Shown: piece by piece, positions 1 to 23,446 of the stretch | Layout of the letters: every line of letters starts with the position of its first letter | Numbering within the stretch: the first letter of the stretch is position 1 | Virus record (IMG/VR): IMGVR_UViG_2698536392_000022 | Location: 1-23,446 of that record | DNA from: a virus | Lineage: Duplodnaviria > Heunggongvirae > Uroviricota > Caudoviricetes | DNA: 23,446 nucleotides | Strand: one strand, 5' to 3' | Position numbers and translations under genes: made by a program | The notes under the pieces: generated by a model | Told to the model about the DNA's origin: nothing | What the model saw: only the letters and a program-made list of their open reading frames with translations | Database searches by the model: none

Positions 1-942
1 TTAAGTTAATTTTAATGAATGGTACTCTATCGAGCTGATTGTAGATGCGATATATTTACGATCATTTACAGAGAGTATTGCCGCTAGTAGACGACATACC
101 AGAGCCTGCATTTGTAGCAATATATCGCTACCATATTGACAATCATTGATACTAGAGAAACCAAGCGGTTGCCCATTAAAAATGGCTTCATGAAAATTAT
201 CATTGCGTATAACTGAAACATTACATTCATCTGTTGCCCATGACGGGATTTTTACACCGTAATTTTCGCACATCCAATATACTCTATTTTGATGAGATGG
301 TTTTTTCTCTTTAATGACTTTATCCCTTTCATCCCATGCTATAGCAAAACAGCAATCAAGAGCCATATAAAGATACTGGAATTTCTCAAAGGAAAGGTAT
401 AGTGGGTTATGTGATAGGAATAGGGAGTGTATCACCGCAGCTATTCTTTTAATGGAGCGATCATCTTTTTGTTTGTCTTTTATATAGTTAAGTGCTAGCT
501 CTATTACTTCTTTTTCAGAGCATCCAACGAGAATAAAGTCAGTTAACTTAGTGGGCTTGATAGTGGTTGCATCAAGAAAACCAGCGTCAGTGGTTGTCAA
601 TCTTATACCCTTGAAAAAAGAGAGGCACCACACAACAAAGTTGAGAGTTTCTAACGAGGATGTGTTTTTTAATTTTAGTGTGTGCGTTTTGGGCATGCCG
701 AATACTCGGTAACTATAAGGCATTGTGCATGTGTCACCATTAAGGTTATATACCTTTCGATTCCCAGGGTATATCCAACCATTAACAACGTTTTTATCAT
801 TGTTAATACGTTCCACTTTCTCAATAAGACCGGGTAAAGTACGCAAAGAAAATTGTTCAGTCTCAATGTTAACTTCTACTGGATAGTATCCAAACTCCGA
901 AATAATCTCATTTGGTTGCTGTTCATCAACTTCACCTTGCAT
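1..942 (-). CDS. Hypothetical protein, 313 aa, AT-rich cargo gene at the cos-proximal (old/tin-equivalent) position
   Basis: Complete ORF with ATG at 942..940 and stop at 3..1. GGAG Shine-Dalgarno 6 nt upstream on the minus strand. About 30% GC against about 52% in neighbouring phage genes. No family recognised by eye. Confidence 0.7.
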   Translation of the reverse strand: MQGEVDEQQPNEIISEFGYYPVEVNIETEQFSLRTLPGLIEKVERINNDKNVVNGWIYPGNRKVYNLNGDTCTMPYSYRVFGMPKTHTLKLKNTSSLETLNFVVWCLSFFKGIRLTTTDAGFLDATTIKPTKLTDFILVGCSEKEVIELALNYIKDKQKDDRSIKRIAAVIHSLFLSHNPLYLSFEKFQYLYMALDCCFAIAWDERDKVIKEKKPSHQNRVYWMCENYGVKIPSWATDECNVSVIRNDNFHEAIFNGQPLGFSSINDCQYGSDILLQMQALVCRLLAAILSVNDRKYIASTISSIEYHSLKLT

Positions 943-1180
943 AACTTTCTCCGTTCAAAAACAGGCACGATAATTCTCGTAAGCCTATCATGTTCGCAAA
1001 GTATCCATACCTGTGGATTTTGTAAATTTAAGTTGATTTGTCATTAAATAAGCCGTTGCATGCAACAAGTGAATGTTTTTGCATGCGTCGGGGATGTCCG
1101 TTCAGGCTGCGTGCGGTCAGGACTGGTGCGGATCCATAGTATCTATGCAACTGCATTAAAACCGCCCCATGAAGCGGGCG

Positions 1181-1199
1181 GGCGAGGCGGGGAAAGCAC
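1181..1199. other. cos: Phage cos site (19-nt cohesive end, P2-type)
   Basis: Sequence GGCGAGGCGGGGAAAGCAC matches the P2 cohesive end as I recall it. It lies about 170 bp beyond the 3' end of portal gene Q, as in P2. Flanked by a short dyad (ccgccc / gggcgg). Confidence 0.6.
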
Positions 1200-1341
1200 T
1201 GCGCGCTGGCGGTGGTGCTGATTTTATTTTTTCAGCGTCTGAGCGCGTCGTGGCGGCGTTTAGTCTGCCCGTTGGGGTGTTGGTGTGTTTGCGGGATGTT
1301 TTGTGCGGTGGTGAGCGTGTGAGGGCGTGATGACGGGCTGT

Positions 1342-1363
1342 AAAAAAGCCGCCCGCAGGCGGC
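1342..1363 (-). terminator. Putative intrinsic terminator downstream of Q (minus strand)
   Basis: GC stem gccgcc / ggcggc with a 4-nt loop at 1348..1363. On the minus strand it is followed by a run of six T (1342..1347). Sits 5 nt after the Q stop. Confidence 0.5.
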
Positions 1364-1368
1364 GATGT

Positions 1369-20708: not shown

Positions 20709-20860
20709 CGTTCCCGAAAAATCTGTCGGTCGATGACCTGATGGCGGATGTGGCAGTGATATTTCACTGGCCGCCATCAGAACTGTATCCCATGAGCCTG
20801 ACCGAACTCATCACATGGCGCGAAAAGGCGCTCCGGCGAAGCGGAAACACGAATGAGTAA
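20433..20860 (+). CDS. E+E': E+E' tail assembly chaperone fusion made by a programmed -1 frameshift
   Basis: Slippery T TTT TTG at 20681..20687 in the E frame. The -1 frame stays open to TAA at 20858..20860, overlapping the T start. Predicted fusion is about 142 aa, as for P2 E+E'. Confidence 0.7.
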
Positions 20861-22664
20861 CAATGTAAAATTACAGGTATTGCTCAGGGCTGTTGACCAG
20901 GCATCCCGCCCGTTTAAATCCATCCGCACAGCGAGCAAATCGCTGTCGGGGGATATCCGGGAAACACAAAAATCACTGCGCGAGCTGAACGGTCAGGCAT
21001 CCCGTATTGAGGGATTTCGCAAGACCAGTGCACAGCTCGCCGTGACTGGTCATGCACTTGAAAAGGCACGGCAGGAAGCCGAAGCCCTTGCCACACAGTT
21101 TAGAAACACCGAACGTCCGACCCGTGCTCAGGCGAAAGTGCTGGAATCCGCAAAGCGTGCGGCGGAGGACTTACAGGCGAAATATAACCGCCTGACAGAT
21201 TCCGTTAAACGCCAGCAGCGGGAACTGGCCGCTGTGGGAATTAATACCCGCAATCTTGCACATGATGAGCAGGGACTGAAAAACCGTATCAGTGAAACCA
21301 CCGCACAACTTAACCGTCAGCGCGACGCACTGGCGCGTGTCAGTGCACAACAGGAAAAACTTAACGCAGTCAAACAGCGTTATCAGGCCGGAAAGGAACT
21401 GGCCGGAAATATGGCCTCAGTGGGCGCTGCCGGTGTGGGGATTGCTGCTGCGGGAACGATGGCCGGTGTTAAGCTGCTGATGCCCGGTTATGAGTTTGCG
21501 TAGAAAAACTCAGAATTGCAGGCTGTGCTCGGTGTTGCAAAAGACTCCGCCGAAATGGCCGCGCTACGCAAACAGGCGCGCCAGCTCGGCGACAACACAG
21601 CCGCCTCGGCGGATGATGCTGCCGGTGCGCAGATTATCATTGCGAAAGCGGGTGGAGATGCTGCGGCTATTCAGGCGGCAACGCCGGTCACGCTGAATAT
21701 GGCACTGGCGAATCAGCGGTCGATGGAAGAAAACGCGCAACTGTTGCTGGGGACTAAGGCATCCTTTCAACTGTCAAATGATGATGTCAGCCATGTGGGC
21801 GACGTGTTGTCAGCAACGATGAATAAGTCGGCGGCTGATTTTCAGGGACTCAGTGATGCACTGACTTACCTCGGTCCGGTTGCGAGGACGGCAGGTGTAA
21901 GTCTTGAGCAGGCAGCGGCCATGACAGGTGTGCTGCATGACAATAACATCAGGGGGGCAATGGCGGGTACGGGTAGTAGTGCCGTTGTCACCCGATTACA
22001 GGCTCCGACAGGGAAAGCATGGGAAGCACTAAAAGAGCTTGGCGTTAAAACCTCGGACAAAAAGGGAAATATGCGTCCGTTGTTCACCATTCTGAAAGAG
22101 ATTCAGGTCAGCTTTGATAAACACAAGCTGGGAACGTCTCAGAAGGGGGAATACCTTAAAACCATTTTTGGTGAGGAAGCCCTGAAATCAGCGAACGTTT
22201 TACTGGCAGCGGCTGCAAGCGGAAAACTGGATAAGCTGACCGCCACGCTGAAAGCCTCGGACGGGAAGACCGCAGAGCTGGTAAATATCATGCAGGACAA
22301 CCTCGGCGGTGACTTTAAGGAGTTTCAGTCCGCTTATGAGGCGGTGGGGACAGACCTGTTTGACCAGCAGGAAGGCGCACTGCGTAAGCTCACGCAGACG
22401 GCCACAAAGTATGTGTTAAAACTCGACGGCTGGATCCAGAAAAACAAATCACTGGCGTCAACCATCGGCATCATTGCCGGTGGCGCGCTGGCGCTGACTG
22501 GCATCATCGGTGCAATTGGTCTTGTAGCCTGGCCGGTTATCACCGGCATCAATGCCATCATCGCGGCAGCAGGCGCAATGGGGGCAGTCTTCACGACGGT
22601 TGGCAGTGCTGTTATGACCGCCATCATTTTGCGATTGCTGACCGTGGAGCCTATACCGGCGTAA
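20853..22664 (+). pseudogene. T: Tail tape measure gene (P2 gpT-like), disrupted by an in-frame TAG at 21501..21503 and truncated at the 3' end
   Basis: Two ORFs of 216 and 382 codons in the same frame, separated by a single TAG (...PGYEFA * KNSELQAVLGV...). About 600 codons in total against about 815 for P2 gpT. Ends just after the hydrophobic segment. Confidence 0.75.
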
Positions 22665-22828
22665 CAGCAAAGTGGTTACACACCAAAGACCCGAAACCGC
22701 AAAAGCAGAAGGTAAAACTGAAACGCAAAAAGAAAGAAAAACACCTGCGCGCACTGGAGCACCCGAAAGCGAAACCGGTCAGGCAGAAGAAAGCGCCTAA
22801 AGTACCGGAAGCGCGCGAAGGTGAATAC

Positions 22829-23146
22829 ATGGCCGGTGAGGCTGATAACGTTTTTGCCCTGACCACGGTATATGCCACGAAAGTGCAGGCCATGCGCGCC
22901 GCTCAGGCGAAGTGGGATAAACTGCAACGGGGTGTTGCGGAGTTCTCCATCAGCCTGGCTACCGGTCGGGCAGATATTTACACGGAAACACCGGTTAAAG
23001 TGTCAGGCTTTAAGCGCGTCATAGACGAGCAGGACTGGACAATCACTAAGGTGACACATTTTCTGAATAATAGCGGCTTCACGACGTCCTTAGAGCTTGA
23101 GGTCAGGCTTTCTGATGTGGAGTACGAAACAGAAGATGATGAGTGA
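22829..23146 (+). pseudogene. D: C-terminal remnant of tail protein gene D (P2 gpD-like); gene U is absent
   Basis: Open frame ending directly upstream of ogr, the position of the D 3' end. At least 105 codons from the ATG at 22829, and the frame is open upstream to about 22610 with no ATG. P2 gpD is about 387 aa and gpU about 159 aa. Confidence 0.65.
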
Positions 23147-23227
23147 TGTTTTTATTTTATCTGTTTGTTTTATAAGGATAAATTAACTAAAATGGCACCA
23201 TCAACAAAACCGGAAGAGGTGCTCGCG

Positions 23228-23446
23228 ATGTTTCATTGTCCTTTATGCCAGCATGCCGCACATGCGCGTACAAGTCGCTATATCACTGACACGACAAAAG
23301 AGCGTTATCACCAGTGTCAGAACGTGAATTGCAGCGCCACGTTCATCACTTATGAGTCGGTACAGCGATACATCGTGAAGCCGGGAGAAGTCCACGCCGT
23401 AAGGCCGCACCCGTTGCCGTCAGGGCAGCAAATTATGTGGATGTAA
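23228..23446 (+). CDS. ogr: Late gene transcription activator Ogr, zinc-finger, 72 aa
   Basis: ATG at 23228 with GAGG Shine-Dalgarno. MFHCPLCQHAAHARTSRYITDTTKERYHQCQNVNC... carries the Cys-X2-Cys ... Cys-X4-Cys zinc-binding pattern and has the length of P2 Ogr. The ORF-track start is an upstream TTG. Confidence 0.9.
   Translation: MFHCPLCQHAAHARTSRYITDTTKERYHQCQNVNCSATFITYESVQRYIVKPGEVHAVRPHPLPSGQQIMWM

Follow-up and report, generated by a model that had tools for sequence, protein, structure and literature searches.

A P2-like prophage in O165:H25 Shiga toxin-producing Escherichia coli, very probably inactivated recently and decaying by ordinary mutation

We analyzed a stretch of DNA of 23,446 nucleotides (IMG/VR record IMGVR_UViG_2698536392_000022, positions 1 to 23,446; hereafter, the window) that carries the late region of a P2-like (Peduovirus) prophage residing in an O165:H25 clone of STEC (Shiga toxin-producing Escherichia coli). 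This element is very probably a recently inactivated prophage that is decaying by ordinary, unselected mutation. Judged from its sequence, it is defective in tail assembly, excision, and lytic switching. A preliminary description of the window had proposed that the prophage is defective while its cargo and lysis genes are intact, and had gone on to suggest that the host had domesticated it and kept it for its accessory functions. The first of these proposals agrees with what we found, namely, a nonsense mutation in T, the deletion of U, a truncated D, a frameshift in cox, and an IS2 in the early operon. The second does not agree with the distribution of the lesions among related genomes, with the state of the cargo in a sister prophage, or with the pattern of substitutions, as described below.

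Identification of the prophage and its host

Among phage records searched by megablast, 15 covered 80% or more of the window at about 95 to 96% identity; all were of P2 type, and they included P2, vB_EcoM-12474 II to V, P2_AC1, and fiAA91-ss. The window is collinear with phage P2 at 93 to 97% DNA identity, three variable loci excepted: window positions 1181-14647 align with P2 1-13459, positions 18440-22625 with P2 17433-21622, and positions 22616-23446 with P2 23424-24254. The late genes follow the P2 order, Q-P, O-N-M-L-X-Y-K-lysA-lysB-R-S, V-W-J-I-H-G, FI-FII-E-T-U-D, and ogr, with T, U, and D as remnants.

A search of complete E. coli genomes gave an end-to-end match to the chromosome of STEC strain 2012C-4227 (NZ_CP013029.1, 1442965-1466410), whose serotype is O165:H25 (PMC4683243). 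The sole difference is a synonymous base at window position 34 (G versus A, codon 303 of cargo gene 1). According to the RefSeq annotation of this strain, the P2-like prophage sits between pflA and pflB, and the window spans the part from the cos-adjacent cargo gene to the stop codon of ogr. The adjacent early region in the host genome is also of P2 type, with int, a C-type repressor, cox, B, and A. The repressor C, of 99 amino acids, is 43% identical to P2 C, and int is 53% identical to its P2 counterpart. The base at window position 34 is shared with strains 2013C-4830, 90-3040, and Yu5, and a 1-bp frameshift in H of 2013C-4830 is absent from the window, which may thus derive from a third, nearly identical genome or from a different version of the assembly.

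Compared with bacteriophage P2 (NC_001895) and its relatives vB_EcoM-12474III, P2_AC1, fiAA91-ss, and Wphi, the element has the same gene order (cos, Q-P, O to S, orf30, V to G, Z/fun, FI to D, and ogr), an identical cos site, and the three nonessential loci at the same places. It differs from them by an amber codon in T and a 1,811-bp deletion across T, U, and D, by other cargo at the old/tin and Z/fun loci, by a longer H with a different C terminus, and by its repressor, the divergence of which from P2 C indicates another immunity type.

Two mutations account for the damage to T, U, and D

All the damage to the tail genes T, U, and D is accounted for by two mutations. The first is a C-to-T transition that changes codon 217 of T, which encodes the tape measure protein, from CAG to the amber codon TAG (Q217*, 21501-21503). 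The second, identified by comparison with strain 90-3040, is the loss of 1,811 bp between two copies of the 10-mer GACCGCCATC. The window retains a single copy at the deletion junction (22616-22625, plus strand), while in the intact sister the 10-mer borders the missing segment at both ends. Such a repeat-bounded deletion is a signature of slippage or microhomology-mediated loss. It takes T from about codon 592, all of U, and codons 1 to 211 of D. What remains is a T pseudogene (20853-22625, plus strand) that is cut off after about codon 591 and a D remnant (22616-23146, plus strand) that corresponds to the C-terminal 176 of 387 amino acids, lacks a start codon, and does not share the frame of T.

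In the source genome, RefSeq flags T as having an internal stop and a missing C terminus and D as missing its N terminus. Furthermore, a second isolate, 2013C-4830, whose genome was assembled independently, shows the identical internal stop in T and the identical junction. In the annotation of the P2 record, T and U are each an "essential tail protein," and D contributes to tail formation. The tail module had previously been described as broken in T, U, and D; this is correct in substance for T and D, which are damaged, while U is absent rather than damaged. We also considered that the amber codon could be a suppressible regulatory device, a reading that we rejected since U and half of D are in any case lost to the deletion farther downstream.

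Further lesions lie in the early region

The preliminary description had pointed to the integrity of the early region, outside the window, as a check on the defective state. This region turned out to be damaged as well, which strengthens the case for a defective prophage. In both 2012C-4227 and 2013C-4830, cox is frameshifted by the loss of one A from a run of eight (A8 to A7), and an IS2 with a GTTGT target duplication lies between the open reading frames on the cox side and the replication genes orf78, B, and A. A second IS2, with a TCGGG duplication, is located 161 bp to the left of the window in both strains. On the prophage locus of the window lineage (L002), cox and the two IS2 occupy positions 4300-4655, 5496-6829, and 11508-12839, respectively. 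The whole element has thus been hit by no fewer than four or five separate events that inactivate or disrupt it.

A sister prophage carries the opposite set of lesions

Strain 90-3040 harbors the same prophage at the same pflA-pflB site, with the same cargo gene 3 and orf30, at 99.87% identity over 21.7 kb. Its T (815 amino acids), U (159 amino acids), and D (387 amino acids) are annotated as intact, its cox is intact, and the IS2 in the early operon is absent. However, its cargo gene 1 is interrupted by an IS2 (window 868-872; 11169-12503 of the 90-3040 locus, L004), and its H carries a frameshifting deletion of 10 bp (window 15967-15976). A comparison with closely related genomes had been suggested together with the domestication proposal, and its outcome speaks against that proposal: the sister has an intact tail, and the hits fell on cargo gene 1 and H. 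This opposite pattern is as expected from random hits. At the level of the genome search only, strain 2013C-3492 gave the same match pattern as 90-3040. In both lineages, the replication gene A has no stop codon (...MEWT* is replaced by ...MEWTSWQNSRGKA...; L002 8649-10931 and L004 7282-9564), and RefSeq flags this gene as incomplete.

To gauge how widespread the T-D junction is, we searched 5,426 complete E. coli genomes with a probe of 150 bp that spans it. The full probe matched in only 2 of them, while in 1,602 genomes the two flanks were found apart. As the sister strain that we examined is also intact at T, U, and D, the defective state is not clade-wide among the genomes searched.

Substitutions in the late region fit neutrality

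To follow the recent evolution of the locus, we polarized the substitutions between the window and 90-3040 with two outgroups. There were 16 substitutions in all, 15 of them coding. Ten arose in the window lineage, comprising three synonymous changes, six missense changes (P S43N, P R14P, N A275V, M K46N, H E138D, and FI L44F), and the nonsense mutation in T; the other six arose in the sister lineage. Additionally, L acquired a derived in-frame deletion of 3 bp near position 7493 in the window lineage. Seven of the 10 substitutions in this lineage were G:C-to-A:T changes, a bias that is as expected from raw mutation and that fits relaxed constraint on silent prophage genes.

The ratio of nonsynonymous to synonymous changes among the 15 coding substitutions was 12:3, in line with neutral evolution (p = 1.0), and strong purifying selection can be rejected (p = 1e-5). 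Furthermore, substitutions were 3.5 to 4.9 times as dense in the late region as in the remainder of the locus, which comprises the chromosomal flank and the early region of the prophage (p = 0.014 to 0.026).

Several points weigh against unselected decay. The counts are small (16 substitutions), and weak selection on some of the genes is possible. Over short time scales, the ratio of nonsynonymous to synonymous divergence is inflated in bacteria generally. The three intact cargo genes are compatible with selection as well as with chance. Finally, the frameshift in the cox homopolymer could be a sequencing error shared by the two assemblies, both of which are long-read.

Alternative explanations

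According to the domestication proposal, the host keeps the element for its beneficial cargo, and perhaps for its lysis or head genes, while the tail genes are free to decay. We consider this improbable. The proposal can draw on the fact that all three cargo genes are open and preceded by motifs resembling ribosome-binding sites, but 24 noncargo genes are equally intact, so that intactness has no discriminating power. It can also draw on the position of the cargo, at P2 loci with known defense genes, and on homologues of the cargo that adjoin a Gabija-like pair or a cluster of a reverse transcriptase and an AAA_15 ATPase; however, cargo gene 3 and orf30 are frameshifted in other carriers, and the cargo shows no excess conservation, with 1 to 2 substitutions observed versus 2.3 expected, a comparison of low power. 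The literature leaves the matter open: in a 2026 survey, 98% of P2-like prophages contained at least one pseudogene, defective P2 elements with conserved defense genes were found, and domestication of such elements was left as a possibility (PMC13586616). For the element studied here, the lesions are limited to 2 of 5,426 genomes, the sister lineage lost cargo gene 1 and H instead of the tail, and the late genes evolve neutrally at a nonsynonymous-to-synonymous ratio of 12:3. We found no purifying selection that would set the retained genes apart from the decayed genes, and one of the retained genes, cargo gene 1, is interrupted in the sister. The three cargo loci are also regular moron sites in viable P2-like phages, some of which carry cargo gene 1.

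Another possibility is mobilization by a helper, in which a P2-like prophage or P2 itself would supply T, U, and D in trans, so that the element could still spread, as could a P4-type satellite that exploits its heads. In favor of this scenario, the cos site, the terminase, the head genes, ogr, and the layout of the late operons are all intact, and P2 late promoters can be activated in trans. Within this genome, though, the T and D flanks occur at one place only and no second close copy of T or D is present. Excision and replication would be blocked as well, by the frameshift in cox and the IS2 of the early operon. We consider helper mobilization highly improbable.

The least credible alternative is that the prophage is really intact and that the stop codon and the deletion are errors of sequencing or assembly. 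The two assemblies do come from one laboratory and one type of platform, the cox lesion is a homopolymer indel, and 2013C-4830 has an extra 1-bp frameshift in H that 2012C-4227 does not have. Nevertheless, artifactual lesions in T, U, and D are very unlikely because the separate assembly of the second isolate has the same stop and the same junction, in isolates of different years. The 10-bp direct repeat at the borders of the deletion is a biological signature, long-read errors are mainly small indels rather than substitutions or losses of 1.8 kb, and 90-3040, from the same series of U.S. isolates, has the intact sequence. The idea that the T and D lesions are assembly artifacts, which had been named as a way to overturn the defective state, is thus not supported.

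A reading of the element as a tailocin or gene transfer agent was rejected, since here it is the tail that is broken and the defective state is limited to one clone; R-type pyocins, other tailocins, and gene transfer agents, which are true cases of phage domestication, likewise consist of genes of phage origin that can no longer build a complete virus, but tailocins keep the tail, lose the head, and are conserved across clades under selection.

Late genes that remain open

By comparison with P2, 24 late genes begin with ATG and are free of internal stops: Q, P, O, N, M, L, X, Y, K, lysA, lysB, lysC, R, S, V, W, J, I, H, G, FI, FII, E, and ogr. The majority of them have the P2 length and 97 to 100% amino acid identity. 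Relative to the P2 record, L is one residue shorter, lysA is three residues longer, and the lysC call is 15 residues shorter; lysA, lysB, G, and the C terminus of H are more divergent. Intact reading frames with ribosome-binding sites had been noted beforehand, and our analysis concurs for the open late genes and the three cargo genes, with Shine-Dalgarno-like motifs at the cargo genes.

The cos site, GGCGAGGCGGGGAAAGCAC (19 nucleotides, 1181-1199, plus strand), is an exact match to that of P2 and lies between the variable locus and Q. The portal gene Q (1369-2403, minus strand) encodes 344 amino acids, as in P2, of which 339 are identical, and the large terminase gene P (2403-4175, minus strand) encodes 590 amino acids, again as in P2, with 586 identities. 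On the plus strand follow O, N, M, L, and X (scaffold, capsid, small terminase, head completion, and tail protein X; 4349-7891), all open relative to P2, and the lysis cassette with Y (holin), K (endolysin), lysA, lysB, and lysC (7895-9680), also all open. The tail completion genes R and S (9643-10555, plus strand) are intact, and the baseplate and fiber genes V, W, J, I, H, and G (11496-16771, plus strand) are open. Similarly, the sheath gene FI, the tube gene FII, and E with its E+E' frameshift product (18655-20860, plus strand) are intact, and the slippery site GGTTTTTTG is conserved. The late-gene activator gene ogr (23228-23446, plus strand) encodes a protein identical to P2 Ogr at 72 of 72 residues.

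Two of these genes contain repeats. H encodes 772 amino acids (P2 H, 669 amino acids), and a 132-bp (44-amino-acid) tandem repeat present in 3.5 copies at 14468-14923, with 88% identity, adds to its length. In lysA, a 9-bp unit occurs three times at 8965-8991 and corresponds to the three extra residues. An Rfam scan of the window returned no hit.

Cargo at the three nonessential loci

The three cargo genes are located at old/tin, orf30, and Z/fun, the three loci that are nonessential in P2, and stand out by a GC content of 0.34 to 0.37, versus 0.51 to 0.62 elsewhere in the window. Each is open, has GGAG, AGGAG, or GAGG upstream, and matches end to end a PHROG profile of unknown function. Searches of Pfam, PADLOC, NCBIfam, and PDB sequences with the three proteins, as well as with family alignments and distant members, gave nothing usable; matches to RNR-R2, which spanned 40 residues at an E value of about 0.012, were put down to chance. 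None of the defense models of PADLOC-DB v2 (profile hidden Markov models) matched the three proteins or 27 homologues of cargo gene 1, and a literature search on the three RefSeq protein accessions found no publication.

Cargo gene 1 (1-942, minus strand; 313 amino acids) lies at the old/tin, or cos-proximal, hotspot, has GGAG upstream, and matches phrog_5937 over its full length. The residues R246-N247-x3-H251-E252 are invariant in the 27 homologues and resemble the Rx4-6H motif of HEPN-domain nucleases such as ApeA and HepT. A Foldseek search gave weak matches to HepT toxins (E = 2 to 8), the loop with the motif being modeled with a predicted local distance difference test score (pLDDT) below 50, and neither a Pfam hit nor a match to an ApeA or HEPN model was obtained. 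One homologue is labeled "Apea-like HEPN" in UniRef, which a Pfam scan of that sequence did not reproduce, so that we treat the label as a lead only. More than 260 homologue clusters were found across Gammaproteobacteria, and in Pseudomonas aeruginosa, one homologue is separated by about 3 kb from a pair of Gabija-like genes. Cargo gene 1 is also present in the isolated infectious phages vB_YpM_46, VB-YPM-4, and vB_EcoM-720R8 and in a P2-EC67 fragment; the hosts of the viable P2-like phages that bear it are Yersinia and E. coli.

The orf30 homologue (10627-11412, minus strand; 261 amino acids) shares 210 of 261 residues with P2 Orf30 and matches phrog_2407 over its full length. It is AT rich, with hydrophobic segments and the look of a membrane-spanning protein, and the P2 record calls orf30 "nonessential." Frameshifted copies of orf30 were also seen in other carriers.

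Cargo gene 3 (17053-18396, plus strand; 447 amino acids) lies at the Z/fun hotspot and matches phrog_15354 over its full length. In its family, H43, E44, H47, and N51, which form an HExxH motif, and four cysteines near the C terminus are invariant. An AlphaFold2 model with a pLDDT of 92 had no analogue among solved structures, and despite the HExxH motif, neither a zincin fold nor a match to a zincin family model was obtained. A first search found 36 homologue clusters in Gammaproteobacteria, and a profile search extended the family to at least 1,034 clusters, defined at 50% identity and almost all of 440 to 490 amino acids; the distant members had no named domain, except for a short C-terminal DUF2934 in a few. 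A homologue in Enterobacter adjoins a reverse transcriptase, an AAA_15 ATPase, and insertion sequence elements, and one in Aeromonas has no obvious mobile context. Cargo gene 3 occurs in 13 of 5,426 E. coli genomes, is frameshifted in 2 of these 13, and is absent from 50,697 phage records. A promoter-like site (16858-16887) and a terminator-like hairpin (18531-18551) surround it; consensus promoter scans were not enriched over shuffled sequences, and these sites are only positions consistent with separate transcription units.

The cos-proximal locus of P2 is a hotspot for anti-phage systems (PMC9122126). It is possible, although we hold it tentatively, that cargo genes 1 and 3 represent new single-gene anti-phage systems at P2 moron hotspots, the defective state of the prophage being incidental to them; the product of cargo gene 1 may then be a HEPN-like RNase distinct from ApeA. 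The two families are leads for new defense genes and not demonstrations of them.

Discussion

The history of this element can be read from its lesions. A C-to-T transition created the amber codon in the tape measure gene T, and a deletion by slippage or microhomology between the two 10-bp repeats removed 1,811 bp. Elsewhere, cox lost an A from its run of eight, and IS2 inserted twice. The element is not expected to make infectious particles because gpT, gpU, and gpD are lost, without which no tail would be assembled; because Cox is lost, without which neither excision nor the lytic switch would take place; and because the IS2 that separates Pe/cox from B/A would be expected to exert polarity on the replication genes. 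That the genes for head, lysis, and baseplate and the cargo genes are intact would reflect only the short time elapsed, the divergence from the intact sister being 0.07%. The three AT-rich genes would be usual morons, acquired while the phage was active, probably expressed in the lysogen from promoters of their own, and plausibly with an anti-phage role. Selective retention of these morons need not be invoked.

Induction with mitomycin C had been suggested as a check on the defective state. This assay is poorly suited and would be uninformative because the repressor is of the P2 C type (99 amino acids) and P2 counts classically as a non-inducible temperate phage (Bertani and Bertani, 1970, as cited in PMC5009727).

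The phenomenon is well known: it is common for defective P2-like prophages to have intact morons, and RefSeq had already flagged the pseudogenes described here. The defective P2-like elements with defense genes described previously (PMC13586616) also combine pseudogenes of mobility or structural functions with intact hotspot genes; they differ in that they carry recognized defense systems, whereas the cargo of the window matches no known defense model and its decay is at a very early stage.

Overall, the sister copies at one chromosomal site, with their different random lesions, offer a clean, small example of prophage death. They also serve as a warning that intact cargo beside a broken tail is not to be read as domestication. 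The main remaining value lies in the families of cargo genes 1 and 3, which are sizeable, unannotated, and located at proven defense hotspots, and which are candidates for phage challenge.

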